A DNA stretch of 63,427 nucleotides, counting the filler, from Welwitschia mirabilis (lineage: Eukaryota): assembly GCA_051453625.1 (NCBI GenBank). It is 7 parts of one record of this genome, joined end to end, with 100 filler letters (N's around TTAATTAATTAA, not from the genome) between each part and the next. Parts side by side here need not be neighbours in the genome. Positions count along the whole stretch, not along the records: positions 7,144 to 27,763 come from JBOZIK010000001.1; positions 27,864 to 33,306 come from JBOZIK010000001.1; 5 more parts are not named here. The stretch is one strand, 5' to 3'. Below are positions 7,044-57,056 of this stretch, piece after piece. A model generated the notes under the pieces. It saw only the letters and a list, made by a program, of their open reading frames with translations. It was not told the DNA's origin and did not search any database. Numbering within the stretch: the stretch's first letter is position 1; each line of letters begins with the position of its first letter. A program made the position numbers and the translations under genes.

Positions 7044-7087
7044 NNNNNNNNNNNNNNNNNNNNNNNNNNNNNNNNNNNNNNNNNNNN

Positions 7088-7099
7088 TTAATTAATTAA
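7088..7099. other. Artificial scaffolding spacer TTAATTAATTAA within N runs (also at 27808, 33351, 41527, 53392, 59768)
   Basis: Identical 12-mer with stops in all six frames, flanked by ~44 N each side to give ~100 bp, seen six times. Confidence 0.95.
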
Positions 7100-7733
7100 N
7101 NNNNNNNNNNNNNNNNNNNNNNNNNNNNNNNNNNNNNNNNNNNATCAAGTAACATGTCCTAATAAAATTATGAACAAATGTGCAAGGTAAGAGAAAGTTT
7201 TATTTTAAGCATATTCATGATAATCAATTTGATTCACCAATTCACTGGCTCATAGTAAAAATCCTAATGAAGACACATAACCTTATTAGCAAAGTTTGAT
7301 TAATACTACATTCTCTTAGAATTAAAAGTAAAAGATGGAATAGCATCCCCAAAGAAAAGAGAACATGCAGATTATGTAATTTAGAAGCCCTTAAAGATGA
7401 ATGACTTATTTTACTTTTTTGTCATACTACAAAACCTATGAGAAAAAAATTCAATATCACTATAAGAAATCTCTTTGATTTTTATTTTTATATTGCATCT
7501 AGTGATTGTTGACCATTTTATTGAATCTATCTTTGTATTCCATGACATGATCATTTCCTCTATCTAATAAATCCTTTAGATCGTTAGACCTAATAAAAAT
7601 TTAGTTTTAGTTTTAGTTTCATAATTCTTAGGAAAGGATTATAAAGAATCCAAGGGTTATAGGGCTTTCGTCTTCCCTTTTCACTTATCTTGCACAGTTT
7701 TAGGTACTTTCCTAGAGTAGCCGATGATCTTAC

Positions 7734-8038: not shown

Positions 8039-9294
8039 TGGTATTAGAGTAGGAATTTATCTCAAGTAGTAATAACTTTGTAATTGATAAAGCTAGTTTA
8101 TATGTCAACATAATAAATGATGAAGAAGTTTTTAATCTATTTGAAAATGATCCAATAGAAACCAGTGAATACTATATAGCCATTTAGTATGATAGATATT
8201 GCCATATCAAGGATAAAGAAATAGATGATTTATCATCATCCTTTAAATGGATGTTATTACCCCACAAGTGGAACTCACAGGAATTTTTGTTTACTGCAAC
8301 TATCTTCACAAATGCTGCATTACTTTATCTAGGTAAAAAAATAAAACTCAAACATAATGATTTCAATCTAGAAAATGAGGATCGATGATTTCATTGCTAT
8401 GTTGGAATTGAAAAGATATCTTAAAAGTCTAGTTTCAGATTACAAGGAAAATGAAGCTTACATAGTCTACCTGTGTATAGTTATAAACATTAGCAATGAA
8501 GTGTATCCCATGACTTATGGGAAAGAAAAATAACAAGATGTTTGGAGCTATCTTTCAAAGACCTTTGAACTAAAAAATAAGATGATGAAGTAATTCTTAA
8601 TGGTAGAATTACACTCTCTACAACTAGGAAAGAATAAAGATCTCTCTAATTCANNNNNNNNNNNNNNNNNNNNNNNNNNNNNNNNNNNNNNNNNNNNNNN
8701 NNNNNNNNNNNNNNNNNNNNNNNNNNNNNNNNNNNNNNNNNNNNNNNNNNNNNATTGATATAAATAATCATAACCTAGAATATTGTATTTATGTATTGAT
8801 CTTTCACTTTGGAAGATGTATAATAAATTACATTATTCTCTCTTCATATTTTAAGTGTTCTTGCATTTTGCGCTTTTAATATTCTAAGCTTTAAAAAGCT
8901 TTGCATTAATTTTCTTTGTGCTCTATAAGATTTACTGCTTTCTCACTAAGGACCAACATGGTATTAGAGAAGGGATTAACCTCAAGTGGTAACAACTTTG
9001 TAATTGATGAAGCTAGATTGCATGTCAACATAATAAATGATAAAGAAGTTTTCAATCTATTTGGAAATGATCCAATGGAAACCAGTGAATACTATATAGC
9101 CATTTAGTATGAGAGATATTGCCATGTCAAGGATAAAGAAATAGATGATTTATCATCATCCTTTAAATGAATGTTATTACCCCATGAGTGGAACTCATAG
9201 GAATCTGTGTTTGTTGCAACTATATTCACAAATACTGCATTACTTTATCTAGGTAAAAAAATAAAACTCAAACATAATTATTTCAATCTAGAAA

Positions 9295-12200
9295 ATGAGG
9301 ATCGATGATTTCATTGCTATGTTGGAATTGGAAAGATATCTTAAAAGTCTAGTTCCAGATTACAAGGAAAATGAGGCTCACATACTCTACCTGTGTATAG
9401 TTATAAACATTAGCGATCAAGTGTATTCCATGATTTATGGGAAAGAAAAATAACAAGATGTTTGAAGCTATCTTTCAAATACCTTTGAAGTAAAAAATAA
9501 GATGATGAAGTAATCCCTAATGGCAAAATTACACTCTCTACAACTAGGAAAGAATAAAGATCTCTCTAATTCAAAGAAGAAAATCATTAAAATCAAAATG
9601 GATATCTCAATACAGATGTGAAGTAAGATTGATGAAGAAATAGTTAAATTTGCCTTACTGAATGTGCTACCTTCCAAGTTTGACATTTTTAAAGAACCAT
9701 TGAAGTTCTTCAATTAGAGAAATATGTCTAAGACACTATTTACNNNNNNNNNNNNNNNNNNNNNNNNNNNNNNNNNNNNNNNNNNNNNNNNNNNNNNNNN
9801 NNNNNNNNNNNNNNNNNNNNNNNNNNNNNNNNNNNNNNNNNNNNNNNNNNNNNNNNNNNNNNNNNNNNNNNNNNNNNNNNNNNNNNNNNNNNNNNNNNNN
9901 NNNNNNNNNNNNNNNNNNNNNNNNNNNNNNNNNNNNNNNNNNNNNNNNNNNNNNNNNNNNNNNNNNNNNNNNNNNNNNNNNNNNNNNNNNNNNNNNNNNN
10001 NNNNNNNNNNNNNNNNNNNNNNNNNNNNNNNNNNNNNNNNNNNNNNNNNNNNNNNNNNNNNNNNNNNNNNNNNNNNNNNNNNNNNNNNNNNNNNNNNNNN
10101 NNNNNNNNNNNNNNNNNNNNNNNNNNNNNNNNNNNNNNNNNNNNNNNNNNNNNNNNNNNNNNNNNNNNNNNNNNNNNNNNNNNNNNNNNNNNNNNNNNNN
10201 NNNNNNNNNNAAAAGGGATATCTCGATACAGATGTAAAGTAAGGTTGATGAAGAAATAGTTAAATTTTCCTTACTGAATGTGCTACCTTCCAAGTTTGAC
10301 ATTTTTAAAGAAGTATTGAAGTTCTTCAATTAGACGAATATGTTTAAGATACTATTTACATAAGTTAACCAGGCTGACATTGAGTTGAAAATGAAAGAGA
10401 AGAAGATAAAAGTGGCACTAGGTATCCAAACTAAGCAAACGAGGAAACCTATCTACTACAAATTCTATAAGAAAAATGGATTTCACTTAGTAAGGAACTA
10501 TTTTAACAATTCCAAAAATCCCAGAAACAAGTTACAAAAAGAAGATAAAAAGGATGGGATAGCTTTTAAATCATTAAAGCAGAAGATAGTAGAAACATCA
10601 AAATAGCTAAATCTTAAAGAATTCTCTCCTATTTCCATCACAAAAGTTGTAGAAACCTCTATTGGTAGTGAAAATAACTAGTTTATAGACTCCGATGAAT
10701 CCATTCACATAATTGGAAAAAAAAATTACCTTTTAAGATTATGATCCTTACCAAATTCCTTGGTAAAAACTATCATAACTAATGATATAACAATACTACA
10801 GACTTATCAAGTTGGAGAGGTGGATATTTCCCTAATTAATTTAAAGGACGTTCTTTACATTTAAAATTTCAAGATGAACCTAATTTTAGTATCCTGCCTT
10901 ATTAAGGATGAATATAGGATAAGTTTCAAAGTAGAAGGAAATGATACAATCTATGTCATTTTAAAACATGACAACAAAATCGTAGCCAAATAGGATGAAG
11001 GAACTTATTTACTACATCCAAAATAATAAAAATCAATGATAGCTAAGGAGGATTAAGAAGTGAACATTTGGAATTAAAGGTTAGTACATGTAAATTTTAA
11101 GAAGCTAATTGGGTTACATAACAAGCTTCTTTGATACCAAAACTAAATAGTGAAAGGTTGGTTTACAAATCTTATCATATGGGTAAGTTTTTAAGAAAGC
11201 CATTTAAGGGATATTAATGCATGTTAACAAGCTCAAAGCTTGAACTAATACATAGTAATCTCTGTGGTCCCCTTCTCAAATCCATTAAATGTTAAAAGTA
11301 CATTTTGATCTTTATAAATGACTTCACATGTAGTGTTTCATCTACTTCCTTTGAAATAATATTAGATGATTGATGCCTTTAAGGTATTCCTACATCTTGT
11401 GAAGAACCAAACAGACTTGACTATGAAGCATCTAAGAATGGATGGAGGGGGTAGTATATTTTACAACTGTTTCAAGATTTTTTTTGAACTAAAAGATATC
11501 AAACACGAAGTTAATCCACTACACACTCCTCAACTAAATGGAGTAGCTAAAATAAAGAATTAGACCATAATGTAAATGATGCATAGTATTTTGTATAACA
11601 TAAAAATTCCAAAATATCTATGAATAGAAGCAGTAAGTACTATAGTTTATCTTCAAAACAAAATACCTACTAAGACCTCAAAAGGAGATATTCCATTAAA
11701 ATTATGATCTGAAAAAGAGATCTCCTATGCTTATCTTCATGTTTTTGAAAACAAGTATTTCATTTTGGATAATTTGAAACATGAAAAACTCTAAAACAAA
11801 GCCCTAATATGCTATCACTTGGATTAATCTAAAGAGAACCAAGCTTACAAAGTATGAAATCCTTACTCTAGGTAGGTGATGATATCCACAAATGTTAAAT
11901 TTTATGAGAGATCCATTAGCTATGTAGAAGACACATCAAAAACAAATGTGATATCAAAGCAAGTGCTTCGGGACATGTTCCAGGACATGATAACCAAGAT
12001 TAAGGGAAATGAGATAGAAGATACTCATTGCCCTAAGGTTATAATCTCTAAAATAAGAGATGATATCAGAGACACTGATACAGGGAACCAATCTAAGAAA
12101 TTTTCTCTCCAAAGAACTAGAGAAGAAGATGAGCTCTCTGAATTAAATAGCAAGATAGTCCAATGAGGAATGAAGCCTTAAAACAAGGTACCTAAGTAGG

Positions 12201-13840
12201 CTCAACAAATTCAAAATGACTTAAGGGATGCTGAGAAAAGTCTAATTAAAGAACAAAACACTAGTCATATAACTAGAAGTGGTTAATCATTTATTTTAAA
12301 AACAAATGTAAAAATAGAGGAACCAGAAAGTGTTGCAGTAGAACTATCCAATCCAAATTGGAAGTTGGTGGTGTAGGAAGAATATAATATGTTGATAAAA
12401 AATAACACATGGGTACTTGAGGAATCTAATTAAAAACCGATAAATACTAGATAGGTATTTTGAATCAAATATAATCAAGATGGCTTTATCAATAAATACA
12501 AATTAAGATTTATTATTAAAGCTTTCTCTCAAAAAGAGGGAATTAAGTTCAATGATACCTTTGTTCCTATAGCAAAAATCAGAATGATAAGAGTTCTATT
12601 AGCATTGGCGACATAATATGAATGGGATATAGTATAAATAGATGTCAAATCCACATTCTTGAATGGCAACTTAGATGAAAAGATCTTCATAACTTAACCA
12701 GAAGAATTCCAAGTACTAGACTCGGAGTAAAAAGTCTATAGGCTTAAAAAAATTTCCCTATGGTCTAAAACAAGATCCTTGTAACTGGTATGAGAAAATA
12801 AATAAATTTTTATTGGGCATCGAGTTTAGCTAGACAACTGCAGACAAAAACTTGTATGTGAAATAATACAAAAACTTGAGACATGTGGAAATACTGATTT
12901 TATATATCAATAACATAATAATAATAGGTGAGAATAAGTAGTCAATCAAAGATACTAATATCAAACTTGGTGAAGAATTTGAAATTTTAGACCTCGACGC
13001 ACTGAAATATTTCCTAGGATTCCAAACTAGGAGAGAGAAAAAATATTAAAAATATTCTAAGAAAAGTATACTAAGATATACTTAGTAACTGGAATATGGA
13101 GAATTGCCACATAAGAAAAAATCCGATGAAGCTAGCCTCAATTCTTGAGGTGATCAAAATAGACACAAAGATAGATGTCAAGTGTTACCAATGTCTTATG
13201 GGAAGATAATATACTTAACTAATACAAGATTGAACATTAACTTTATAGTAAATAAGTTAGCTAGGAGAATGCACGATCCATATGAGATTCACATGAATCT
13301 TAGCATTAATGTGTTAAAATACTTTACTAGAATAGTAAAGTATGATATTATGTTTCAACAAGGAAGTGGAGGCTTTACTAGACATACAAATTTATATTGG
13401 GTAGGAGCAGAGGAAAGATGCTCTACCACAGGGTTCGTGATTTAGTATAATAAGGCATCTATCTCATGGTTAAGTTAGAAGAAAAAGATTCCAACTCTTT
13501 CTTCTATTAAAGTAGAATATATTGCTGCAGTAACAATGTGCTATGAATTAAAATCACCACATTAAGTCTTATGGATCTTGGTAAAGTTATCAAGACACTA
13601 GTAAAAATATTCTATGACAATCAAAGTGCCATTAAGCTAGTGAAAAATCCTATATTTAATGAATGGATGTAACACATCAAAGTAAACCATAACTATATTC
13701 ATTATCTATAGAAGGAGAAGTTCATGGACCCAGACTATATCAATACATAGTGCAATAAAGTAGATGGCCTAAACATGCCACTCAGCAGATGTAAATTTTC
13801 ACAATTTCTTGAAGGCATCCAAATAACTAATGTTACCTAA
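9295..13840 (+). pseudogene. Copia gag-pol polyprotein pseudogene
   Basis: Decayed Zn knuckle YKFYKKNGFHLVRNY (~10456), protease *FIDSDESIHI (~10679), integrase ELIHSNLCGP and LRMDGGG...HTPQLNGVA, RT EEYNMLIKNNTW and IDVKSTFLNG, RNase H LSSIKVEYIA and IFYDNQSAI; many stops and frameshifts. Confidence 0.92.
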
Positions 13841-13879
13841 GTCAAGGAACTAGTTAGAGTAGTTTAGATTAAGAAACGG

Positions 13880-14674
13880 TATTAGACAACAACGTGTTCT
13901 AAGTATCAAAACATCAAAACACTCTTATATAAAAGTGTCAAAATACTTTAGGAGATTATGTAATCTCTCCTACTTAGTTAGCAATCTATTAGGAATTAGT
14001 TAAGATTGTTTAAGTTATTTCTATTTATATTATGGTAAGAAGTGACTATCTTGATATGAAAAGTGAAGACCCAAAATATTGTATTTATTTATTAATCTTT
14101 CACTTTGGAAGATGTACAAAAAATTACATTATTATCTCTTTATATTTTAAGTGTTATTGCATTTGACTTTTAATATTTTAAGCTTTGAAAATCTTTTTAT
14201 TAATTTTCTTTGCACTCTCTAAGATTTACTGCTTTTGTNNNNNNNNNNNNNNNNNNNNNNNNNNNNNNNNNNNNNNNNNNNNNNNNNNNNNNNNNNNNNN
14301 NNNNNNNNNNNNNNNNNNNNNNNNNNNNNNNNNNNNNNAAACACTCTTATATAAAAGTGTCAATATCCTTTAGGAGATTATGTAATCTCTCCTACTTAGT
14401 TTTCATTCTATTAGGAAATAGTTAAGATTGTTTAAGTTATTTCTATTTATATTATGATAAGAAGTGACTATCTTAATATGAAAAGTGAAGACCCAAAATA
14501 TTGTATTTATTTATTAATCTTCCACTTTAGAATATGTACAAAAAATTACATTATTATCTCTTTATATTTTAAGTGTTACGGCATTTGAATTTTAATATTT
14601 TAAGCTTTGAAAATCTTTGTATCAATTTTATTTGCACTCTCTAAGATTTACTACTTTTGTAGTAAATACCAACA
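13880..14674 (+). repeat. 3' LTR of the copia element, present as two overlapping copies across a 100-N gap (13880-14238, 14339-14674)
   Basis: Homologous to 7734-8038; ends ACCAACA followed by the TSD. Confidence 0.88.
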
Positions 14675-17600
14675 CTTACTACTTTGTCCATAGAGTCATC
14701 ATCACTAATGAGGATGACTTCATAAGAAGAACACCTTGCACTACTTGGCTTTTTTATGCAACCTTATAACTGTGTAGGATCCCCTTGCACTTATTTTCCT
14801 ACATCTACAGCTAGAGTATCCCCAAGGGGCTCCTTCTTAGAAGGGACCCTTTTAGAAGAGACCCCATCTTCTTCACTCATAGGCTTAGCACTCTTCTTGC
14901 TGAGATAGCCAAATCATTTCTCTACACTTGAGCTAGAAACCCTCTTGATATCCACTTCTTCTACCAAGTAAAATTAAAATTACACCCTCTAACATTAGCA
15001 TTGATTTGTGCCCTTTCTCATTTAACCTGTTGACCCTAGGCATTACCATGTAGTTGAGGATAAGGAGGGAGGTTTGAATTTGTATAGAAATTGATTAAAT
15101 AATAAAATAGACTAGAATTTATATTTCCTAGCCTCTTCTTTAATGTTTTTACTAAGCAGAATGGGATATTAACTCTTTGTCTTTCATGAAAAGAGTAAGA
15201 AGAAAAGAAAAATACAATTCTTTCAACTTTGAATGGTTACCATCCTTAACTAAATACCTATCCAAAACTTATGCTACCATGTATTAGCGCTCATGCACCT
15301 CTAAATTTTTAATGTAGATATATGATATTTTTGGGCTCCTCCTTTTAAAGAACCTATATGCATATGGATACAGCACCACTGAAGGAAAAAGTAAATCTCC
15401 TTCTTCAGTTACTCAAAGGGCTTAAGCAATCAGGTTTGAAGAAATCTCTACTTTCTTCTTCTAATATTTGTCCTTTCATTAACTATTACTTTACTCCTAA
15501 TAAATTTTAAATCCATACATAAGAAAACAAAGGGCTCTCACCCAATATTAATGATGCACTATTAAATCTTAGGGTTCTTCCTAAGCATTAAATCATTTAA
15601 ATGCTCATTCTAGGGATTCTTCCCCATTCTTCCTACTGATAGAGTACTATCTATTCAATATCTGATTCTCCAAAACATATAATGGATTTAAGGCTGCTTG
15701 CCTTAAAAAATGAGTTAATTTTGGTAACCCAAATATACCATAGAGGGACTTCTAAGAAGCATCCTATAGTATTAATCATTATAGTATTCTTTTTAACTTA
15801 ATCCTAACNNNNNNNNNNNNNNNNNNNNNNNNNNNNNNATTTTAGGACATGTCACATGCTATACAAGATATGAACAATGCCATAGAATCCTATCACACCT
15901 TTATAAAGGAAAATTTTTTGTAAGATATAAAGATTCATTTATTTTGTTGAATTAACTAGCTTATGTGGTCCTTGCTAAATGTCTAATTCATTTATCATAA
16001 TAATTATAGGATAAGGAGTCTGGCTTATTAGTTGATATAAGGGCTTCTTAATTATAGATTATAGAAAGAGGATTGTTGATCTTACATGTTTATTATGCTA
16101 GTNNNNNNNNNNNNNNNNNNNNNNNNNNNNNNNNNNNNNNNNNNNNNNNNNNNNNNNNNNNNNNNNNNNNNNNNNNNNNNNNNNNNNNNNNNNNNNNNNN
16201 NNNNNNNNNNNNNNNNNNNNNNNNNNNNNNNNNNNNNNNNNNNNNNNNNNNNNNNNNNNNNNNNNNNNNNNNNNNNNNNNNNNNNNNNNNNNNNNNNNNN
16301 NNNNNNNNNNNNNNNNNNNNNNNNNNNNNNNNNNNNNNNNNNNNNNNNNNNNNNNNNNNNNNNNNNNNNNNNNNNNNNNNNNNNNNNNNNNNNNNNNNNN
16401 NNNNNNNNNNNNNNNNNNNNNNNNNNNNNNNNNNNNNNNNNNNNNNNNNNNNNNNNNNNNNNNNNNNNNNNNNNNNNNNNNNNNNNNNNNNNNNNNNNNN
16501 NNNNNNNNNNNNNNNNNNNNNNNNNNNNNNNNNNNNNNNNNNNNNNNNNNNNNNNNNNNNNNNNNNNNNNNNNNNNNNNNNNNNNNNNNNNNNNNNNNNN
16601 NNNNNNNNNNNNNNNNNNNNNNNNNNNNNNNNNNNNNNNNNNNNNNNNNNNNNNNNNNNNNNNNNNNNNNNNNNNNNNNNNNNNNNNNNNNNNNNNNNNN
16701 NNNNNNNNNNNNNNNNNNNNNNNNNNNNNNNNNNNNNNNNNNNNNNNNNNNNNNNNNNNNNNNNNNNNNNNNNNNNNNNNNNNNNNNNNNNNNNNNNNNN
16801 NNNNNNNNNNNNNNNNNNNNNNNNNNNNNNNNNNNNNNNNNNNNNNNNNNNNNNNNNNNNNNNNNNNNNNNNNNNNNNNNNNNNNNNNNNNNNNNNNNNN
16901 NNNNNNNNNNNNNNNNNNNNNNNNNNNNNNNNNNNNNNNNNNNNNNNNNNNNNNNNNNNNNNNNNNNNNNNNNNNNNNNNNNNNNNNNNNNNNNNNNNNN
17001 NNNNNNNNNNNNNNNNNNNNNNNNNNNNNNNNNNNNNNNNNNNNNNNNNNNNNNNNNNNNNNNNNNNNNNNNNNNNNNNNNNNNNNNNNATATATTATAT
17101 TGGGAAAAATGAAGAAAGTAGTAAGACATGCTAGAAATTAGATGATATGCTAAATAATACTGATTTTTAAATATTTTTAATTATTCTAGTTTATTTTCAG
17201 CTACATAAATAAGAGAAAATAAAAATAATATTATTCTTTTAAGTAATAGAACATGCACATAATGATACTTAAATATGCTTTTCAACTTTATATTGAAATA
17301 TTAATTGTTACATAAAGATGCACTAAGTCTTATGTCATCCTTTTTAGGTAATATTTTGGAGTATGAAAAATTTTGTTGTTTCCTTTGCAAGATAGCTAGA
17401 GCTCTCTTNNNNNNNNNNNNNNNNNNNNNNNNNNNNNNNNNNNNNNNNNNNNNNNNNNNNNNNNNNNNNNNNNNNNNNNNNNNNNNNNNNNNNNNNNNNN
17501 NNNNNNNNTTCCTTGACCTTCTTGCTTAGTCTATTCCTATAATGTTTTGCTAAAAAGATTCCCATCTTTAATGGTAATCCCGTTATTATACCCTTGTTTG

Positions 17601-19770
17601 TTTTTATATTTACATTCTTTTCTCCTTAGAAATAGATATATGGTTAGGGTTATTAGAGCTTTTTTTCTACCTCAACCTTCTCTCTTATCTTCATGTCACA
17701 TGGCATCCTATACCTAAAACACAATAATAAAATATACATACTAACCTACTANNNNNNNNNNNNNNNNNNNNNNNNNNNNNNNNNNNNNNNNNNNNNNNNN
17801 NNNNNNNNNNNNNNNNNNNNNNNNNNNNNNNNNNNNNNNNNNNNNNNNNNNCTTGACCTTTTTGCTTAGTATATTCCTATAATTTTTTGCTAAAAAGATT
17901 CCCATCTTTAGTGGTGATCCCGTTATTATACCCTTGTTTGTTTTTCTATTTACATTCTTTTCTCCTTAGAAATAGATATATGGTTAGGATTATTAGTGCT
18001 TTTTTGCTACCTCAACCTTCTCTCTTATCTTCATGTCACATGGCATCCTATACCTAAAGCATAATAATAAAATATACCTACTAACCTACTAACATACTAA
18101 CTAACTAATCTATTGATTAGTAAGTATACTGATNNNNNNNNNNNNNNNNNNNNNNNNNNNNNNNNNNNNNNNNNNNNNNNNNNNNNNNNNNNNNNNNNNN
18201 NNNNNNNNNNNNNNNNNNNNNNNNNNNNNNNNNACCTTCTCTCTTATCTTCATGTCACATGGCATCCTATACCTAAAACACAATAATAAAATATACATAC
18301 TAACCTACTAACATACTAACTAACTAATCTATTGATTAGTAAGTATACTGATAAATAAAAACATCTATTATTATTTAAAATGCATAATTAATATAATTCA
18401 AACACTTCATTAATAAGTAAGAATTACATAAAAATTTATCGTCTTCAGTTCCCCCAAGCTCAAGGTTTTGTTAGTTCATTAACAAATAAACATATACAAA
18501 AGAGAGAAATAGATTCAGATTAGGGATGCTTATAACACTAAATTTTTAAAGGATGGATCATCCTTAGTACATTCATAGTACAAGAAGCTTAGCAAAGTAG
18601 AAGTTCAAATTTTTGAACTGCAATTTTAGTGCTTTACAGCTATCCTTACTTTCTAAAATTAAAATTAGCACTTTCAATCTAGACAACTGCATAAATGTGA
18701 GTATGATTCTCTTGGATTACATTGATCACTTTATATTCTATAGACCATGAATTTCTTACACAAAATTCATGAAGTATTTACAAGAACTCCTCATTAAGTA
18801 GATTCCTTTTGAAAATGTAACTTGGTTTCTTTGATTACTTTTACCTCTTTATCTCTTAGGAGCTTTTCTCCTATCAAAAAAACCTATTTTCTATATTTAC
18901 TTTGTCTAAATCTTTATTAATCTACTCCCTATAAAGTACCATTTTCATTCAAATGGAGCAAAGATCCATTTCCTAAGATATTTTATTTAGCTTTTCAAGA
19001 TAATCTTTTTACTTAAAACTTAGCTCAGAAAATTTCTTCTATAAATACCTAAGCTTATCATAGTAAGGTGGTCACTTTTCTTATGAAGAGGGTTTGATGA
19101 GGGTTGTAGAGAACTTTTTAATTATTAATGAAACCCAACGAACCCATTGTGATAACTTATATTCCTACTAAGAGTTCTCTTTGATATCCTTCTTTTTGAT
19201 ATCCTAGTCCACTTCCCAGAAGCTCTGATACTAGATGTTAGAGTTTGTCTTAAAAATTTTACATGAAGCTATCTTGTCATGCTTCTAAAAGCATGATAAA
19301 ACATAATAAAGCATGAAAATATAGGAGAATGTGAAATGTAAAAGTTACAATCCTAACTCCTACTTAATATAGTTAAAAACTTATAGTTGCATTAGTTACA
19401 CACAATCAAGAAGTAAATACAATCATGAACTAAAATTAAATCAAATGGGAATGGATATTTTTTGTACTCTAATGATGCTAAGAAAAAAAATCTGAATTAC
19501 ATGTTGATAAGGTATAAATTAAAAATATTTATTANNNNNNNNNNNNNNNNNNNNNNNNNNNNNNNNNNNNNNNNNNNNNNNNNNNNNNNNNNNNNNNNNN
19601 NNNNNNNNNNNNNNNNNNNNNNNNNNNNNNNNNNCTACTAACATACTAACTAACTAATCTATTGATTAGTCAGTATACTGATAAAGAAAAAATCTATTAT
19701 TATTTAAAATGCATAATTGATATAATTCAAACACTTCATTAATAAGTAAGAATTACATAAAAATTTATCC

Positions 19771-19790
19771 TCATCAGTTCCCCCAAGCTC
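19771..19790 (-). promoter_or_regulatory. Polypurine tract / 3' LTR start of a minus-strand gypsy-like element (duplicate at ~18432-18460)
   Basis: + strand CATCAGTTCCCCCAAGCT; the reverse complement AGCTTGGGGGAAC-TGATG is a PPT followed by a TG LTR start. Confidence 0.55.
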
Positions 19791-20550
19791 AAGGTTTTGT
19801 TAGTTCATTAATAAACAAACATATACAAAAGAGAGAAATAGATTCAAATTAGGGATGCTTATAAGATTAAATTTTTAAAGGATGGATCATCCTTAGTACA
19901 TTCATAGTACAAGAAGCTTAACAAAGTAGAATTTCAAATTTTTGAACTGCAATTTTAGTGATTTACAGCTATCCTTACTTTCTAAAATTAAAATTAGCAC
20001 TTTTAATCTAGATAACTGCATAAATGTGAGCATGATTCTCTTGGATTACATTGATCACTTTATATTCTATAGACCATGAATTTCTTACACAAAATTCATG
20101 AAGTTTTTACAAGAACTCCTCATTAAGTGGATTCCTTTCAAAAATCTAACTTGGTTTCTTTGATTACTTTTACCTCTTTGTCTCTTACGAGCTTTTCTCC
20201 TATCAAAAAAACCTATTTCCTATATTTAATTTGTCTAAATATTTATTAATCTACTCCCTAGAAAGTACCATTTCCATTAAAATGGAGCAAATATCCATTT
20301 TCTAAGATATTTTATTTAGCTTTTCAAGATAATCTTTTTACTTAAAACTCAGCTCAGAAAATTTCTTCTATAAATACCTAAGCTTATCATAGTAAGGTGG
20401 TTAATTTTCTTATGAAGAGGGTTTGATGAGGGTTGTATAGGACTTTTTAATTATTAATGAAAGCCAATGAACCCATTGTGATAACTGATCTTCCTACTAA
20501 GAGTTCTCTTTGATATCCTTCTTTTTGATATCCTAGTCCACTTTTCAAAA

Positions 20551-20570
20551 GCTCTGATACTAGATGTTAG
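20551..20570 (-). promoter_or_regulatory. iMet-type PBS and 5' LTR end of a minus-strand LTR element (duplicate at 19222-19241)
   Basis: + strand GCTCTGATACTAGATGTTAG; reverse complement CTAACA-TC-TAGTATCAGAGC. Confidence 0.65.
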
Positions 20571-23405
20571 AGTTTGCCTTAAAACTTTTACATGAAGCTA
20601 TCTTACCATGCTTCTAAAAGCATGATAAAATATAATAGAGCATGAAAATATAGGAGAATGTGAAATGTGAAAGTTACAATCCTGACTCCTACTTAATATA
20701 GTTAAAAACTTATAGTTGCATTAGTTGCACATAATCAAGAAGTAAATACAACCATGAACTAAAATTAAACCAAATGGGAATGGATCTTTTTTGTACTCTA
20801 ATGATGCTAAGAAAAAAAATCTGAATTACATGTTGATAAGGTATAAATTAAAAATATTTATTAAGTTAAAACTAAGATAATAGATGCTAACATGGTTGGG
20901 ATGATGTAAAACTAACATTACAATGAGGATCATCGAGAATAAGTAGGGATTATCAAGAATGAGTTTAGGTGAAATTCTAGAGAAATCAAAAGACATACTT
21001 AAGTGGTAACTACTCTTTGAAATATCAAGTTTAATAAGGATTGTTAAAAACTCTTGATTTCTTGACAAGGGCTGTCATATCTATTATGGAGCTAGTTAAA
21101 AGAGTTCTAAGATGGTCATTGAGAACTCTTGAGTTTTCAACAAGGTCATTTGATTATGATCACCATCATTATGAAAGCAATTAATAATAAAAAGCACATG
21201 ATAGAGTTATAGGGGAAAGTTAAGAGGGATCATCAAGAACAAGACTTTTCTCTTTTAGAAGCAAGTTTGAAGAGATAAGATTGACTTGAAATCTAATCCA
21301 AAGCTTTGGCTTTTGGCTGGTGTCAGTTAACTTTTAGAACTTACACTACGATAGTGTAGCTTAACATTTAATTCAAAGTTATGAATTTGAATCATTGTTA
21401 GTCAACTAAGTGTTCTTTATTTTTACTTATAGGATGAAGAACTAATTAGATTAGCTTAAAATCCAACTTGAAGTTTTGACTTCAAGTTAGTATTAATTAG
21501 TCACGTGATCTTATGTGATTATAGGTATTTTAAACATAAGAAAATAAATAAGTTGGCATGATATCTGACTCAAAGTTTTAACTTTGTTGATGTCAGCCAA
21601 AAGAATTTAAATTCTTATCATAATGGTTTGATCTAAAATCTGAGTCAAAGTTTTAGCTTTGGGTTGGCTTTAATCAACCAATTGATCTTTGATTTCAAGG
21701 CCTACTTCATGATGATATTCTATTGAAATAAAAACATTGGTAACTTTTATTTCTTATTCTTCCTTGAACCAAAATAAAAGAAAGTCTTTTTTGAGTTATT
21801 AAGTGTGGCCTAAAAAGTCTTCTCTTAATAAAAAATTATTTGTAGGGCTTTTAGTAATTTCTTAGCAATGTAGCTTATGTTGACAAAGATTAATGGATTT
21901 CTAAAATGGCATGTAACTTAGAAAACCTAAACTAATCATAAATCAATCTGAAGTTCTAACTTTAGATTGAACCTTGGTCTATTTGGGATTCCTTAATTCT
22001 AGACTTACTTTAAGATTGATGCTGATGCTTGGCACACTTTAGCTATTGGTAAAATAGGTATATTACTTTTACATAATCTTTTACTTCAAGATTGAACACT
22101 TTTAAACTAGGTGACTTAATATGAATTATACTTATTAAGCATAATAGTAAGACTTTATGCTATAAATCTCATTCCTTACATGCTAATCATTCATTATTAT
22201 TTACTTAAGATTTAGAATTTCTTCACTTAATCATTTTTCAATTCTTCTCATCTTTTCTTTGTGAATCCTCATGGTTTGCACTCCTCCTTCTTCTTCTCTT
22301 GTTATCTTTGTCATTAAGAAGGTAAAACATTATTTTTTCAACTTGGATTACACATAGATAGATATGTGCATTAGTGGTGTAGATCCCTAGTCACCTCAAA
22401 TCTCTGTTAGGTCTAAAAACATGGTATAATAGTTTTCATACTATGATTACAAATCAACTATTAAGGTCTTAGGTACCTTATATTCCTTCATTAGTAAGGC
22501 TAACAGAGATTTTTTTTAAAGCGGTATCATTCCTCTAAGTTTTAATCCCATGATCCATTACTTGGTGGATGAGTATCTGAGGATAAGAACTAAAGAACTT
22601 CATTAGCAATACAATTATGGGCATTTAGCTTGTGATGTTTCTTTTGGCTAGCTAGCTAAGTAGATGGAAGTACTAGAGAAAATGTTTAATCAGCTTTAAA
22701 GCATAAATCCTATCCTTAGTCTTATTGCATTGAGTTTTGATAAGGAAAATATAGAGAAGAAAATATGGGATGCTAAACCTTATCAAAACTTTTGGTGAGC
22801 CCATCTAGAGGAGATTAATATGCTATCTAAATTTCTAAGAGAGATGCATCTAATGCCCTCCAAATGAGACTTCTATAGGATCATCTAATAAGACTAGGAA
22901 TTCTCAAAGGAGAAATAAGTTTTCTGGCTACTTCAAAAATTAAGTTGCTTTAGTTGCTGATTTATTTACTTAGTAAGTTAAGAAATGTTTTCGCCCTTAT
23001 TCCTGTAACTAGATGTAATAAAACATTTTGCTTAATAAATTTTTTATTTCAAATAATATTGTCTTATGTTATTTTTATTTTATTATGTACATCAATTCCA
23101 TTAAAGGAAATTTAAACTAAACAATTTATTAAATTATTAAGATAATGTGAAATGATTCTAAAACTTTGAAAATTTCCCTTAGCTCAAACAAAATTTAATG
23201 ATTGTACATGATATTGAATTAAAAATATTTGGATATACATTCTATCATAGAATAGAATATCTTTCTTCTCTTTGTTTTCTCTATTAATCTTTCCTTTTTT
23301 AATATAAGTTATGATAGAATCATAATTTTGGTAACTAAATATATCTTAGATGATTCCTGGGGTATAAATATTCCTCAACTTTTTATTTTTTACAACTTAA
23401 GTTAA

Positions 23406-25592: not shown

Positions 25593-25956
25593 ATCATCGA
25601 ATGAGGTAGTGGGATGTAAGAATCAATAGATTGCAAAATGAGGTAGTGAAATTAATTGATTAATTAAATCGTAGATCATTAAATGAGGAAGTAGTCTTCA
25701 TAAATTATCAAATGAGGTAGTGGAGTGAAGAATATGAAAATATTATATGNNNNNNNNNNNNNNNNNNNNNNNNNNNNNNNNNNNNNNNNNNNNNNNNNNN
25801 NNNNNNNNNNNNNNNNNNNNNNNNNNNNNNNNNNNNNNNNNNNNNNNNNGATCACCAAATGAGGCAGTAGTCTTCATAAATTATCAAATAAGGTAGTGGA
25901 GTGAAGAATATAAAAATATTATATGATATCTACAGATCTTCAAATGAGGTAGTGGA
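25593..25956. repeat. Array of short direct repeats (consensus ATCAYCRAATGAGGYAGTGG) with variable spacers
   Basis: ATGAGGTAGT-like cores at ~25601, 25638, 25683, 25712, 25859, 25888 and 25943; the 25859 and 25888 units duplicate 25683 and 25712 across the gap. Confidence 0.8.
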
Positions 25957-26156
25957 AGGAATTAAAATTATATAGAAATTTATAAACTGGTTATTCTTAT
26001 TTCATGATCACAAGATCATCATCCTTGTAACAAGTTTCACCTTTAAAGTTCCTATTTTTGTCTTACCTATCTTAAGGTGTGGAAAACTCCTTGCCTAAGA
26101 CGTTATCATGGATCATACTAGAAACTGTGAAGGTTACAATTATCACAACATGCTTG

Positions 26157-29100
26157 TGCTACAAGAAATATAGGCTTAAAAGGCCTTTANNNNNNNNNNN
26201 NNNNNNNNNNNNNNNNNCCTTAAAAGCCTATGTGTTTTTAAGGTATTTAAATAAAAACACCTTAATAAGTCTTTTGAGGCATTGGTTTAACTCAAGAAAA
26301 AAAATTACATAAAATTTTGCAGTATCTCATCTTCTACTTTGCATTCTTCCTCAATGTTCATATCATCATCGTCAAAATTAAACTCATTCAATAGACTATT
26401 AGGAGATTCATGAATTATAGATCTCTTTAAATTTAGGGAATCAACTAAATGGAATTAAGATATCTTAAACAGATTGAACAAAATCAATGAAATCAATTCA
26501 ATGAAAACTCTACTATAATCTTAAACTCTAATATATATTAAATAATGGGTTTTAAAATTTTTTATATTTTATTTTTTGAGAGCGCTCTAATTAAATTTTG
26601 GTTTGTAGTATTTTCTTATTTGTTACTTTTTGGTTAAGCTAAATGATCATGAAATGTAATAGGTAATGACCAAAATCTTAACCTTAGCATTCCTAATATC
26701 CTTCTCTTTAATCCAAATTAGAATACAAAATTTTAAATTAAAATAGTGTTTCAAGTCACACTGATAACTAGATAACTAAAATATGATGGTGTAACTTTAT
26801 AATATGATGATACCTCTTCAAGCTAATGGAAGGCATGATACATACCTCTAAATATTTTTGAGAAAATTACATACCAAATCTAAGTATCCATAAAATAGAC
26901 CTACATGAAGAACTTGATTATAAAATTATTTGGAAGGCCCATTAACATTAAGATAGTATTATCTCATTAGCTAGGCCAAGTAAAATTAGATACGCTAGGA
27001 TGGTAAAGTAGCAATCTAGTATTATTGGAATCTAGAGAGAAATTAATGCAATAATGTATCAATTAAAGACCAAAAAAATAAGTAGCATGAAATAATATGC
27101 AGACCTACAGATTACTAAACATTTGAATCTATTAAGAAACTTAAGAATAAAAAATCCCTGGGAATCCTAACTAGTTAAACAAAAACTACAGTACAAGATA
27201 GTGCATAAAAAAGAACAAAATCCTATAAAGGATGGAACTCCTTAAGCTACTTAAAATTTTATGAGGATTTCACCCATACCTTGGTTAAGTGTATGCCATT
27301 TTNNNNNNNNNNNNNNNNNNNNNNNNNNNNNNNNNNNNNNNNNNNNNNNNNNNNNNNNNNNNNNNNNNNNNNNNNNNNNNNNNNNNNNNNNNNNNNNNNN
27401 NNTGCAACAACGTATCAATTAAAGACCAAAAAAATAAGTAGCATGAAATGATATGTAGACCTACAGATTACTAACGATTTGAATCTATTAAGAAACTTAA
27501 GAATAAAAAATCCCTGGGAATCCTAACTAGCTAAACAAAAACTATAGTACAAGATATTGCATACAAAAGAACAAAATCCTATAGAGGATGGAAATCCTTA
27601 AGCTATTTAAAATTTTATGAGGATTTCACCCATACCTTAGTCAAGTATATTCCATTTTGTTTTGATGTTTAATAAAGGAAAAATTGATCATTAGAAGATG
27701 ACAATCACATATAAGATAAACACTTAACAAAAATGCATTCCTAATTGAATATCCTTTAAAAGTNNNNNNNNNNNNNNNNNNNNNNNNNNNNNNNNNNNNN
27801 NNNNNNNTTAATTAATTAANNNNNNNNNNNNNNNNNNNNNNNNNNNNNNNNNNNNNNNNNNNNATATGTTCTACTTGAGTAGCAGTAATTTTTACATATT
27901 TTCCATGAAACCATTTTTTTTACAAATGTCACAGCATATCCAAGACTCATCAGAAGCATAATTTTTACCATAAGCACCACATAATATATCATCATGTTCA
28001 TCATTTTCTTCTTAATCTGCTGAATCATCTTCATCTTTAGGAGGTGGTAACTTTGGTGTTTTAGTTTGTGATTCAGAAGCTCATCATCCAGATTTATTCT
28101 TACTACTACTATTTTTAGCAATAAATGACTTTTCCTTTGATTGTTTCTTTGCAACACTAGTTATGACCTTAAAAATAGTTGGAAGGTCATTAATCATGTT
28201 AAAGAGCTACCTCCTGTCATTCTTCTTAAACCTAAATCTTGCTCTAAAATAAAATGTAATAGTAAGAAACCATGCATTATTGTGAACAGTAACCAAAGAT
28301 AATCAATCTTTTTCTTACATCCCATCTCTTGCAAATTTAATTTCCAAAGTAGGCTTAGGGATCTTAGAAGGTACTTCCTGAGTAGGAAGATTAACTTTGC
28401 AAGATTCATCTTGAAAATCATAAAGACATAATTTTTTTTTGGATTGCATTACTGGAAAAACTCATTACATCATTGGTAAGTGCCTTAATAATGCCTACTC
28501 TTCAGCCTCTATAATCCTTAATAACTTCCTAAACAATGCATGGACTATACTATCTAGAGCCTCCTCCTTTTATGGATTCCTTATGCTGTAGAATCTACTT
28601 GATAATTCTCTAATCTATTGTTTCCTCGTTCACGAGAATTGGATAGATGAGGATAAAAAATATTTTAGCTTTAAGCTCTAGCAACTCTAGATACCTGGTG
28701 AAGCGTATGCTTGTTTAGTTTATGTTATGAGCCTTTTTAATAAGATAATACAAACTTCTGATCACAACCTGACTTTGCGCCTTTATTAACTTCAAAAACT
28801 CCATATGTGCCTTTTATAAATAAAAAAAATCCTCTATTAATTTCAAAAATCATTCCTATTTTATTTCATGAATGCATGCAGATCTTGGCCTTTTTTTCTC
28901 TCTAATAGTATTTGTAATAAGACAAGTATTACCCTAAATTCAATGAAATAGAGGTTATCTTATATTAATAAAATAGAGGAAAGTTATGTGCCTTTTATGA
29001 TGTGTCAGTGTTTAAGAGGAGGAAACTCAAATAAAAATTTTAATTTATTACTAAAACATTATACAAGAGTAAATGAAATCATATTTCTTTAGAAGAATCT

Positions 29101-30034
29101 AAACTAACTCCATGAAAACACTAGATTATCCAAGATCCTACAAGAAAATGACAAAAGAAATAGAAAACAAAGTAGATTTNNNNNNNNNNNNNNNNNNNNN
29201 NNNNNNNNNNNNNNNNNNNNNNNNNNNNNNNNNNNNNNNNNNNNNNNNNNNNNNNNNNNNNNNNNNNNNNNNNNNNNNNTACAAGAAAATGACAAAAGAA
29301 ATAGAAAACAAAGTAGATTTTCAAATTATAAAGCTCTTACCTAGGGTTTTAATGATACAAAATCTTCCTTTAATCACATAAAGACAACTGAACCCTAGCA
29401 ATTTACCTACTTGCAAAGAATGTATCTTTGAATAACAAATGAATTTACCTGTAGAAGATCTGAAAATTGAAAACCTCCTAGAGATGCCAAACAACTATCT
29501 TAAATTGTAAATTGATAATAATTGAAGGACATTGTGAAGACCTATGTTCATATAAGTTAAGTAAAAAAAAGAATCAAGCTTTTTCCAAGGAATGAAAGAA
29601 AGCAGAGAAGAAAAAGAGATGACATATTTAATAGGTCATTTGTTTGATGAGAAAAATCACCTCATTGAAGCAATCATGCCAGATTTTGAAATGCCTCTAT
29701 GCACAAGGGTTTTATTTTTGGGAATGCACAAAAATTAGTTTTACAAGTAAACCAAGCATTTATGGCATTTATTAATTAAACTCCTTAAAATACATGGGAA
29801 TTTATGATGTTTCTTTGATTAAATTTCTTAAAAGATCAAAAGCATTTAAGTCATTTTTTATAAATGCCTTAAAAATCTTCGACAGGGGCTTTAAGGTGTT
29901 TATTCAAAAAACACTTTAAAAAGATTACAAATTTCTTTTTCAAACACGTTTATTAAAATGAATGCATTAAAATGGCTAATAATTAAGGTATTTATTTAAA
30001 TAAACACCTTAAAAGCCTCTATTTCTTATAGTTG
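26157..30034. mobile_element. Non-autonomous CACTA (En/Spm)-like DNA transposon carrying a captured gene copy
   Basis: Inverted termini CTACAAGAAATATAGGCTT (26159-26177) and AAGCCTCTATTTCTTATAG (30013-30031) match at 17/19 and resemble the CACTACAAGAAA consensus. Subterminal AAACACCTTAA/TTAAGGTRTTT repeats occur at both ends. Possible TTG TSD. Spans one scaffold spacer. Confidence 0.68.
27864..28573 (-). pseudogene. Processed (intronless) pseudogene of an Alfin-like PAL/DUF3594 + PHD finger protein; C-terminus lost in the gap
   Basis: Manual translation gives (ATG>ATA)KGGGS..YSP..EVIKDYRG*RVGIIKALTND..LCLY..VNLPTQEVP..INFARDGM-like..[73 protein letters not shown]. It has stops and frameshifts and no introns. 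Confidence 0.93.
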
Positions 30035-31384
30035 TTGTGTAGGAAATGTCTCAAGGAGTGAGGTGTAAATAAGTTAATGTTGGATGCTTTCTGTGTGTGA
30101 TTACATTTGAAAACATTATGTATCATTGAGCTTATATAGGAGTTAATCCTTGTGATTTTGCATTTAAGAGATTATGTACTTGAGTTTTTATGTGATGTTT
30201 TAAAAATAAATACTGAATTTGCATCTTTATTTTCTAGCTATTAGAAATGTATGAATTAATTGTGAATTAAGAAATTATTATGAACAATTTAAAATGCAAG
30301 AAAATTTCTTTGAGTATTTTGATTTCTATTAAGTAATAAATTTCTTCAAATATAGTCTATATTTCTTTTAACTCTTATAAGATTTTCAAGGATATTTAAG
30401 AGGATTTCATAAGAGATTAAGAAATTTTGGAATACTACTAATGTTCTAGTTTTTAAAAAACTTAGAAATACTTAGAGGGATGATGTTCAAATAGATAATT
30501 AATTTCATAAGATTAACATGTAGGCATCCCTTTAAATTATATTAGTTGTAATAACTCTTAAGATTAAGAGAGATTAAATAAAAATTATGTTTAACATTAT
30601 TAAGATCCAAACTCAAAACCTTTCTACTCTCACCTTATTATTAACCTGATAACCAGTTAGTTAGACATTATGAACTAATTAAAAAGGAGAATAGGTTGTA
30701 TCCAAGTTATTAAGATCACTTAGTTATTTAGGCATGCTAATTGCTATGTCCTCTAATTGTAACTTTCAACAAGCCATGTTCTTTCTTTCCTTCTTGCCCT
30801 CTTCTTAGCAGCACTAGTTTTAAAACTATAATCTAGGGACAATGTTATTTTATTAGTGCTCCTTATTTCCTCTCTTATGATTCTTCTTGTTCCTTTCTAT
30901 GGTGCTCTAAATCCTTATGTGCTGATATTTTGCTTTAAGATGCATTATGATGCTATTCCTATGTGCATGTATTCAATTTAGTTAGCAATGCATTTAACCC
31001 CAGTCTTTCATAACTTTAAAGTTATTTATGTCACTGTGAAAAGAATTCTGCTATGGAAAATAGAGTCTTTACAAGAAAAGGATTAGTTCATTTTCCAAAT
31101 TAAGGAATTCATTTTCATGCTGTCTCTAAGAAATCCCCAAGCATTGGTAATCCTAGTGGTTCTCTTGATTCTGTTGATATATAGTGTCTTCTATTTAATG
31201 CTTTCCTTACTAAGTAAAATTTGTTTTCATTAATCTATCCTTCCTTCCTTATATTTATGTAATTTCTTGATTCATCCTCATGTAAGTTTTTTTGCCTCAC
31301 TGTCTATTCTACAATAGGCCTCCACTAGCCACCTCCTTCCCTAAACATAATGCCGTTATTTTCTCTCTCATGTGTAAGTTCTAT

Positions 31385-31386
<2 letters not shown>

Positions 31387-31414
<28 letters not shown>
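31387..31414. repeat. (CT)n microsatellite
   Basis: About 14 CT units. Confidence 0.95.
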
Positions 31415-31418
<4 letters not shown>

Positions 31419-31784
31419 CTGCATGATCTAAAGCCTCTAATTCCTCCATCATGTTAACTTGCTAGATAAGCGGTATCCCATGAAAGGGAGATAACGCCTA
31501 TGAAACCCTAGTCCTTCAATAATACTCAAGGAAAATGTATGATAAAACACCTTCAAAATGACTTTCAGAAATATATATATTTTAGAAGAGAAGTCTAAAT
31601 CCTTTTTAATGGAATAAGATGTGCAGTTAAAAAAGGTTAAGATAAAGTATGAGTTGGATATTAAGAAGAGTTAAAAATCTAGAGGTTCCTCTTTCAAATC
31701 CTTATGATGACTTATTTAATTAATTTTAATTACTAGATAGTGTTCATTTCACCTATGGTTAATTTATAGTCTAGAATCCCTACC

Positions 31785-32082
31785 TAATATCTGAAATTCT
31801 TCATCTTTATCATGGTAATATTTGTGGAGAACACTTTAATAGACATAAAATAGCTATAAAATTCTCCATTATAGTTTTTATTAGCCTACTTATTTTTAGG
31901 ATTCTTTTGATTTTGCTAGAAGATCTGATCCTTATTAATATTATGATAGCCTTGTTCATTCTTAAGAAATGCTTCTTAGATCTATTCTTGAATGTAAACC
32001 ATTTGATTATTGGGATATTAATTTTATAGGCCTTATTAATCCACATTTTTCTAATAACCATTACATTTTAGGGGCTATAGAT
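31785..32082 (+). pseudogene. Ty3/gypsy integrase fragment (HHCC region and start of core)
   Basis: EILHLYHGNICGEHF...Y*PT...DSFDFARR and ILECKPFDYWDINFIG...HYILGAID. Confidence 0.85.
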
Positions 32083-33306: not shown

Positions 33307-33469
33307 NNNNNNNNNNNNNNNNNNNNNNNNNNNNNNNNNNNNNNNNNNNNTTAATTAATTAANNNNNNNNNNNNNNNNNNNNNNNNNNNNNNNNNNNNNN
33401 NNNNNNCTAGTTAAAATTTTATTTAGTAGAACTCATTTACCCCTCCTCCCTAAGATTAATAATCCTCAA

Positions 33470-41391: not shown

Positions 41392-43335
41392 TGTAACATC
41401 AAGGAGGAAAAACTAGATTTTTTTAGAGAAGTGGTTAGAGAAGAAGAGGCTTTAGAGACTTTAATGTTAAGCTTTGATAAAANNNNNNNNNNNNNNNNNN
41501 NNNNNNNNNNNNNNNNNNNNNNNNNNTTAATTAATTAANNNNNNNNNNNNNNNNNNNNNNNNNNNNNNNNNNNNNNNNNNNNGCCTCTCTAACTTATCCC
41601 TACTAAGATCAATCCTCTCCCCATATCTGGAAACCCCTACAACTATTGTAATGTGTTGTGTCTCAATGTATATGCAATGTCCTCCTATAATAGATCTAAT
41701 TTGGTTATAATGTAAACCATCCTACTTGGTGGCTGAAATAACCTCAAAGGTCTAGTAAAACTGAATAATCTCTACCTCATAGTAAGAGCCATGATCATGT
41801 AATAACTAGCCAAAAATATTGAACTCCTCCAGTGCATGGTCTAAGTCATGNNNNNNNNNNNNNNNNNNNNNNNNNNNNNNNNNNNNNNNNNNNNNNNNNN
41901 NNNNNNNNNNNNNNNNNNNNNNNNNNNNNNNNNNNNNNNNNNNNNNNNNNNNNNNNNNNNNNNNNNNNNNNNNNNNNNNNNNNNNNNNNNNNNNNNNNNN
42001 NNNNNNNNNNNNNNNNNNNNNNNNNNNNNNNNNNNNNNNNNNNNNNNNNNNNNNNNNNNNNNNNNNNNNNNNNNNNNNNNNNNNNNNNNNNNNNNNNNNN
42101 NNNNNNNNNNNNNNNNNNNNNNNNNNNNNNNNNNNNNNNNNNNNNNNNNNNNNNNNNNNNNNNNNNNNNNNNNNNNNNNNNNNNNNNNNNNNNNNNNNNN
42201 NNNNNNNNNNNNNNNNNNNNNNNNNNNNNNNNNNNNNNNNNNNNNNNNNNNNNNNNNNNNNNNNNNNNNNNNNNNNNNNNNNNNNNNTGGTCTAAGTCAA
42301 GATCTAGCCTCTAATTATAGTTACTAAGATGGATCTCCCTTTGGTAAATGATAGAAGCAAATATATGACTTCCCTCCTATAGAATAGCATTTTACTTCCA
42401 TTATTTTTCTACCCGGGTACTAATAGAGTATGTACATGTTTGAGAAGAGGATGTACTTGTGTCACTCATTTTGATGAAATATGATTGAATTTCTTAAAAT
42501 TAATAGCCCTAAAGGTAAAAGATGAGTGAGGCTCTTGAGAGGAGTTAGAGGAAACATGTGAGATAAGAATTGGTTATAAAATGAGGTATAAAAATGGATA
42601 TATAAAAACTCTATCGTGCTATTATCCCTTGTGTCATGGGAATAATAGTAGAGATGACACATGTGTCATTTGCTTAGTCATGCAGAAAATAATGGGCATG
42701 ACCATATAGAAAAACCAAAATAAAAATTATAGTCGTCATCCCACATGTCATGGGATGACATATCAAATGAAAGCATTCTTGATTTCTAATCAATCCTTAA
42801 TTTTGAAGTTGAACCTTACTAATGGAGGTAATTTCCATCATAAACTTAGTTTTTATGAATTTTAACATTGTACTTAGGAATTGTAAAAATGCTAATATGA
42901 TGAAGGTAAGCCTTAAAAATTTTTATTAAACTAGGTTCAAAGTTGATAAAAAGTCATGGATCTAAGATAAGTGATTTTTGAAGGATCTATTGAGATGGAT
43001 TAATTTGCTTAATTGGCCAAAATTAGCATTTGAAAGGGTCTAATGGAGAAGTCTAAGAAAATTTGATGATTTAGGAAATTTCTCAATTTTAATCTTATCC
43101 AAATTTAAGTGCTTTCAAGTTTTCTGATTAAGAAGAGGATAAGGATCATGAATCATTTAGTTAGTTTGCCAAAAATTAAATTTGAGTGTCATGTCCTTGG
43201 TCATAGGGATGATACAAGACATGATAGTATTACAACAAGTGTCATGGCCTTGGTTGTGGGAATGACATATGACACGATGGGATTTTAAAGGTACATGCAT
43301 AAGATAAATCTAGAATTGAAAGTGGGGTAGTTACA
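41392..43335. mobile_element. Probable solo LTR (TGTAAC...GTTACA) with 5-bp TSD TGGAT
   Basis: Inverted termini TGTAAC at 41392 and GTTACA ending at 43335; TGGAT at 41387-41391 and 43336-43340. Contains gaps, so hidden internal sequence cannot be excluded. Confidence 0.75.

Positions 43336-56993: not shown

Positions 56994-56995
<2 letters not shown>

Positions 56996-57056
<61 letters not shown>
56996..57056. repeat. (GA)n microsatellite running into a gap
   Basis: About 28-30 GA units. Confidence 0.95.

Follow-up and report, generated by a model that had tools for sequence, protein, structure and literature searches.

Introduction

CACTA transposons of the En/Spm type are bounded by terminal inverted repeats (TIRs) and 3-bp target site duplications (TSDs) and contain subterminal repeats; in En1, Tpn1 and Tdc1 positions 3-12 of the TIR read CTACAAGAAA (TIR table, PMC3193017), while Tpn1 and soybean Tgm-Express1 carry host gene fragments (PMC3193017, PMC1947982). 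Pack-TYPE elements, Pack-CACTA among them, are non-autonomous TIR elements with host gene sequence inside, and are described as capturing this chromosomal DNA at the DNA level when neighbouring elements are excised aberrantly (Catoni et al., 2019, PMC6379663; Gisby and Catoni, 2022, PMC8903248; reviewed in PMC13317346). The Pack-TIR pipeline of Tan et al. (2021) drops intron-free copies of multi-exon parents as retroduplicates, yet the same authors describe a near-complete mammalian retrogene, ARF6, within the TIR element MER20, for which they hold recurrent retroposition to be equally possible (PMC8277862). Processed pseudogenes nested in transposons are also found in gymnosperms, where 224,957 processed pseudogenes have been annotated in one genome and the mean transposable element (TE) content is ~70% (PMC13477047). 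Here we analyse a stretch of 63,427 nt, filler included, from Welwitschia mirabilis (GCA_051453625.1), hereafter the window, in which positions 26157-30034 had been annotated from the sequence as a Pack-CACTA-like element carrying an intronless copy of an Alfin-like gene. Our preferred reading, to which we give a probability of about 0.6, is that an old Alfin-like processed pseudogene lies between the ends of an old, decayed and apparently non-autonomous CACTA (En/Spm-type) transposon.

With En1, Tpn1 and Tdc1 the locus shares the CTACAAGAAA core, a 3-bp TSD and subterminal repeats; it differs from these and from Tgm-Express1 in that mutation has altered the outermost two or three bases of each terminus and the passenger is free of introns. 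As in Pack-TYPE elements, TIRs and a 3-bp TSD enclose a host gene and no transposase is assembled, and given that the two scaffolds involved are truly adjacent the locus is a non-autonomous TIR element with host gene sequence. However, Pack-TYPE cargo retains its genomic structure as exon fragments with introns, whereas the Alfin passenger is cDNA-like over 236 codons plus the 5' untranslated region (5'UTR) and represents a complete coding sequence (CDS). The ARF6 retrogene in MER20 presents the same ambiguity as the Alfin copy, but belongs to an animal and to a different superfamily and is expressed, whereas the Alfin copy is dead. The gymnosperm processed pseudogenes resemble the Alfin copy in being intron-free, derived from the full-length mRNA of a multi-exon family, disabled by stops and frame changes, and placed in repeat-rich intergenic DNA; the Alfin copy differs in its position between CACTA ends, and any poly(A) or target duplication would lie beyond the scaffold edge. 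No description of an Alfin copy within a CACTA or Pack-type element was found in the literature searched, the supplements of which could hold such cases, and the available parts of PMC13317346 and PMC8903248 contain no mention of retrogene or intron-free cargo.

Results

Structure of the Alfin-like copy

The features of the locus are collected in Table 1. A tblastn search with P0002, the best homologue (a transcript-derived Alfin-like protein of 253 aa), aligns residues 1-39, 37-47, 47-221 and 220-237 in collinear order along the minus strand, from 28573 to 27866, with 64-74% identity, so that residues 1-237 are covered and the final 16 codons fall past the scaffold edge at 27864. No insertion of intron size interrupts the alignment to P0002, and the Alfin domain (PF12165) is recognized with E=9.3e-33 in a 190-residue minus-strand reading with X at the stops, bearing out the near-full intronless Alfin-like copy of the initial annotation. 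When the left scaffold end was searched with tblastn for the Alfin C-terminus there was no match, and comparison by eye was unconvincing. The proteins closest to the remnant are two transcriptome-derived sequences (74% and 71% identity), with assemblies at 65-66% and a Ginkgo-labelled model at 63%; angiosperm proteins reach at most 61% identity and all rank below these.

Public DNA contigs (X1 and X2, which share a sample, and X4, under a different organism label) and RNA reads were compared with the right scaffold part only; the RNA comparison comprises one raw oligo-dT run, X17, of which about a quarter was read and whose organism label may differ from that of the window. On the Alfin copy fall 998 X17 reads, all of them less than 95% alike (0/0/57/941). 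They cover every bin of 27864-28709, depth is zero in 28710-28991, and molecule ends pile up at 28676-28679. This coverage and these molecule ends show the Alfin copy to be collinear with a spliced mRNA, starting at the mRNA's 5' end.

Table 1. Coordinates of the element, its passenger, the scaffold spacers and the intron-free Alfin contigs
Feature	Position in window	Strand	Remarks
Left TSD copy (putative, 3-bp), TTG	26154..26156		Direct sequence reading; equals 30035-30037
Left TIR	26157..26189	+	Degenerate (TGCTACAAGAAAT...); cut by a 28-N run at 26190
Left subterminal repeat region	26218..26290	+	Inverted homology to about 29830-29900
AT-rich interior	26291..27763		No Pfam match; includes 256-nt direct duplicate 27047-27302/27403-27658 (93%) around a 100-N gap
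Scaffold spacer	27764..27863		N44-TTAATTAATTAA-N44; true distance and content not given by the assembly
Alfin-like processed pseudogene	27864..28679	-	CDS remnant 27866-28573 and 5'UTR 28574-28679; 3' end lost at scaffold edge
Low-copy interior	28680..29837		4-6 DNA contigs per run at 28755-28923; no Pfam match
Right subterminal repeats and right TIR (30001-30034)	29838..30034	-	Contig depth; divergence after 30032
Right TSD copy (putative, 3-bp), TTG	30035..30037		Direct sequence reading
Scaffold spacers, six, identical	7044-7143, 27764-27863, 33307-33406, 41483-41582, 53348-53447, 59724-59823		N44-TTAATTAATTAA-N44
X1 record 1	28136-28440		Intron-free Alfin contig; 52 other letters, 83% alike
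X2 records 9, 10, 12			Intron-free Alfin contigs; 86-87% alike
X4 record 17			Intron-free Alfin contig; 87% alike
X2 record 11, X4 record 18			Closest intron-free Alfin contigs; 96% and 94% alike

Decay of the coding sequence

The copy is disabled by 10 in-frame stops and 3 frame changes, and its initiator is lost (Met1->Ile, ATG->ATA). The PHD domain PF00628 gives no Pfam match in the copy, compared with a match in 120/120 of the listed homologues, every one of which has both the Alfin and the PHD domain. Within the PHD region two Cys-to-Tyr changes have occurred, the altered cysteines being residues that we take to be zinc ligands. At 131 places the window has A or T where the X17 RNA has G or C, the reverse being so at 26, and 57 places are transversions; this ~5:1 A/T excess, with its C>T/G>A pattern, is the signature of deaminated methyl-cytosine. 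The window's letter is present in 0/147 RNA reads at 28208 and in 0/149 at 28227, two positions at which part of the DNA depth carries those letters.

The Alfin copy is thus a dead processed pseudogene and not a working transposon-borne chromatin reader. The initial annotation had likened its cargo to VANC, and the stops, the frame changes, the lost start codon, the undetected PHD domain with its two Cys-to-Tyr changes, the C>T/G>A decay and the RNA counts at 28208 and 28227 all speak against that comparison. VANC of the VANDAL (Mutator-like) elements is an intact, expressed, element-specific anti-silencing protein; the only likeness is that a chromatin-related protein is encoded inside a DNA transposon, and the Alfin copy is untranslatable with its PHD finger lost. 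What stands of the original interpretation is an mRNA-derived Alfin copy in a CACTA-type element; the functional cargo does not.

Termini of the element

The arms of the TIR (26159-26189 and 30001-30031) are 31 nt long and complementary at 25/31 positions (81%). When the reverse complement of the right arm is compared with the whole window, the left arm is the sole match of at least 23/31, and 0/200 shuffles attain the 25/31 of the pair; inverted repeats of comparable size are also present elsewhere in the AT-rich interval. At 26159-26168 the left arm holds the En/Spm-type core CTACAAGAAA, and this core and the matching arms together relate the TIR to CACTACAAGAAAA-type CACTA repeats. The left end of the element reads TGCTACAAG and the right end, on the reverse complement, CAACTATAAG, with degenerate outermost bases (TGCTA on the left; ...TAGTTG on the right, i.e. 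CAACTA on the reverse complement). Motifs of the CCTTAAAA type are concentrated at both ends, and subterminal repeats are found in both, as in CACTA elements. The flanks read ACATGC-TTG ... TTG-TGTAGG, in keeping with the earlier observation that removal of the element rejoins the host as ACATGC-TTG-TGTAGG. As a 3-bp CACTA TSD the TTG/TTG duplication has moderate support, the chance of a 3-mer match being ~0.03 from the base composition of the window and higher if the boundary is freely chosen.

In the public DNA contigs a repeat family of very high abundance terminates at the right end of the element. Contig depth sums to 8955-23255 in 29979-30119, to 954-1452 in 29838-29978 and to 4-22 in 30684-31670, and after 30032 contigs diverge into unlike sequence (236, 281 and 318 in X1, X2 and X4, respectively). 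Past this point the flank consensus has a low agreement of 0.39-0.40, with G as its first letter in 3/3 runs, so that the family terminus at ~30032-30033 would read ...TAGTG, which is the CACTA signature; relative to this family end the window copy has one extra T. Members of the family vary internally: a 107-nt segment (29876-29982) is missing from many of them, the joint 29875->29983 occurring in 14/9/9 contigs, and many further variable joints lie within 29726-30020. The right flank (30120-30683) is itself repeated, with a summed depth of 45-1344, and the element is therefore located inside another repeat.

Interior and gaps

Transposase families were matched (Pfam) by 0/42 open reading frames (ORFs) of at least 35 aa in the assembled sequence of 25850-31500, where gaps could hide more. 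In its assembled part the element, in which no transposase had been seen initially either, is apparently at most a non-autonomous CACTA member. Four N runs divide the element (26190-26217, 27303-27402, 27764-27863 and 29180-29279), the last of them a 100-N gap flanked by an identical 41-mer. Direct repeats flank three 100-N gaps in all (25674-25749/25850-25925, 93%; 27047-27302/27403-27658, 93%; 29139-29179/29280-29320, 100%), an arrangement that looks like redundant or overlapping contigs scaffolded in tandem and that inflates apparent lengths. With near-identical sequence beside these gaps the assembled element length of 3,878 nt is unreliable, and a transposase could be hidden. The spacer at 27764-27863 separates the left end from the Alfin copy, as the initial annotation had recognized; that a TIR pair spans it suggests that at least this join is real. 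A few X17 RNA reads fall on the non-genic interior at 29274-29555 (depth 1-4.5 per strand, none at least 95% alike), and these may derive from a related repeat that is transcribed elsewhere.

Other intron-free Alfin contigs

Further DNA contigs are collinear with the Alfin cDNA over 278-436 nt, and they come from both sampled organisms (Table 1). The two closest, X2 record 11 and X4 record 18, may come from this very locus in another individual or species, since the X4 flank is also ~95% alike; if they do, the insertion would predate the split of the two sampled organisms. For the non-genic interior at 28755-28923 one contig is 99.6% alike (X1 record 2).

The window and its other repeats

The window is a very gappy draft with 53 N runs (11,928 N in total), in which six spacers link pieces that range from about 0.2 to 20 kb; the 12-letter spacer core TTAATTAATTAA is palindromic and places a stop in each of the six frames. 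Without N its GC content is 28.9%, and that of the Welwitschia genome is ~29.07%, ascribed to long-term deamination (PMC8275611). Together with the ranking of the Alfin homologues, this GC content points to a gymnosperm host, probably a gnetophyte, whose genome is decayed to a like degree. No empty-site paralogue and no further copy of the flanks or of the element was found within the window, except for the duplicates beside gaps. A second very abundant repeat, within 31671-32082, starts near 31858, with a depth of up to 27,089 and 84-123 contigs loose-ended before 31858; it is 70-74% like 46941-47187 and 60090-60259. An integrase core remnant of a long terminal repeat (LTR) retrotransposon occupies 46565-47032 on the minus strand (Pfam rve, E=9.9e-08, with a score equal to the gathering score). 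A further nine long ORFs of the window, retroelement-like by eye, have no Pfam match at 0.001, which fits heavy decay. Finally, GA/CT dinucleotide microsatellites lie at 31386-31425 and 56993-57056, and read placement left out 31378-31425 as repeat.

Discussion

The sequence of events that would best account for the locus begins with reverse transcription of a full-length Alfin-like mRNA by the enzyme of a retroelement. The cDNA would then have integrated into an already resident CACTA element; enclosure of a genomic Alfin retrocopy by CACTA ends at a later time is a less likely route. Thereafter the whole locus would have been methylated and have decayed together, leaving it without a present function, and any past movement of the element would have depended on transposase provided in trans by an autonomous relative. 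Given the extremely large numbers of processed pseudogenes in gymnosperms, one landing in a transposon is to be expected, and we consider such a landing at least as likely as amplification of the copy as cargo.

Several points weigh against a processed pseudogene that landed in a CACTA element. Firstly, an exact CACTA is present at neither end of the window copy, and the two ends of the element are on different scaffolds joined via the spacer 27764-27863. Secondly, two of the three frame changes fall in homopolymer runs and are possible draft assembly errors. Thirdly, the 3' end of the retrocopy, with any poly(A) and target duplication of its own, is beyond the scaffold edge, so that the hallmarks of direct retroposition are not visible. 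In addition, the introns of the parental gene are drawn from angiosperm surveys and one pine observation and not from this genome: in Brassica napus four introns at conserved positions interrupt 27/30 Alfin-like (AL) genes, and three of the four fall in the N-terminal domain (PMC11396871), AL genes of seven angiosperms have 5-6 CDS segments (PMC10887727), and the pine ALFIN-like 4 gene has a TE within an intron (PMC7602945). Finally, contig coverage is 6/4/5 at the 5'UTR site 28629 and similar (4-6 per run) over the non-genic 28755-28923, with no fall in depth at the 28679 boundary between them, which fits a unit copied as DNA.

This last observation favours a Pack-CACTA with retrocopy cargo, possible in our view and less probable than the processed pseudogene, in which a small non-autonomous subfamily gained the Alfin retrocopy and then transposed with it, the window holding a decayed member. 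The contigs collinear with the cDNA agree with it too, as their span of 278-436 nt should cross at least one of the three expected N-terminal introns, and so does the retention of the window's derived letter in part of the DNA depth where all RNA differs (at 28102 in 33/71 for X1 and 27/63 for X4). The letters held in common are nevertheless weak evidence of descent, because C>T recurs at the same methylated sites, and Alfin-like genes may repeatedly spawn processed pseudogenes. No contig bridging the junction of Alfin copy and interior in another copy was found among the 24 pieces listed of 31,239, and X2 record 12 (87%) departs into unlike sequence for 174 nt beyond 28569, so that at least one intron-free copy lacks the common context; the two closest contigs, moreover, may stem from this same locus. 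Only tentatively, then, can it be proposed that a full-length Alfin-like retrocopy was present in a small CACTA subfamily of ~4-6 copies before the two organisms split and was spread by cut-and-paste, in which case an intact copy might have supplied a reader of trimethylated lysine 4 of histone H3 (H3K4me3).

We think it unlikely that the two termini come from different elements, or were brought together by mis-assembly, so that the Alfin pseudogene is merely 1.4 kb from a solo CACTA end. The spacer that separates them is one of six in the window, the duplicates beside the three 100-N gaps betray a redundant, low-quality assembly, the two scaffold ends have no overlap or common sequence, and the CACTA family is very abundant. 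Yet the left arm is the sole match of at least 23/31 to the right arm in 63 kb, and the ends are inverted, 3.9 kb apart, homologous in their subterminal DNA and flanked by the same TTG. Reasoning from the contig depths, a random scaffold join would very rarely give such ends, even given thousands of family copies across a multi-gigabase genome.

An autonomous CACTA element typically far exceeds 3.9 kb and the assembly does not fix the sizes of the gaps, but a long, possibly autonomous CACTA with its transposase region in unassembled DNA behind the spacer or other gaps is improbable, given that the 42 ORFs flanking the gaps include no transposase remnant and that the assembled interior is low-copy (4-6 contigs), unlike a family-wide coding region. 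A decayed intronless parental gene in situ was rejected, as all RNA reads are less than 95% alike and the copy is between transposon ends.

As it stands, the Alfin locus is ordinary genome debris, an intron-free processed pseudogene whose coding capacity was wiped out by methylation-driven C>T decay. It illustrates how Pack-type capture can be mimicked when transposon ends enclose an intron-free gene copy, and cases of a retrocopy in a Pack element were filtered out by design in the Pack-TIR survey (PMC8277862). If the same junctions of Alfin copy and interior were present in several elements with differing target duplications, retrocopies would be entering the Pack-CACTA duplication route in a gymnosperm, and the cargo reading, if true, would make the locus a case in which RNA-mediated gene duplication handed over to duplication by a DNA transposon in a gnetophyte-like giga-genome.

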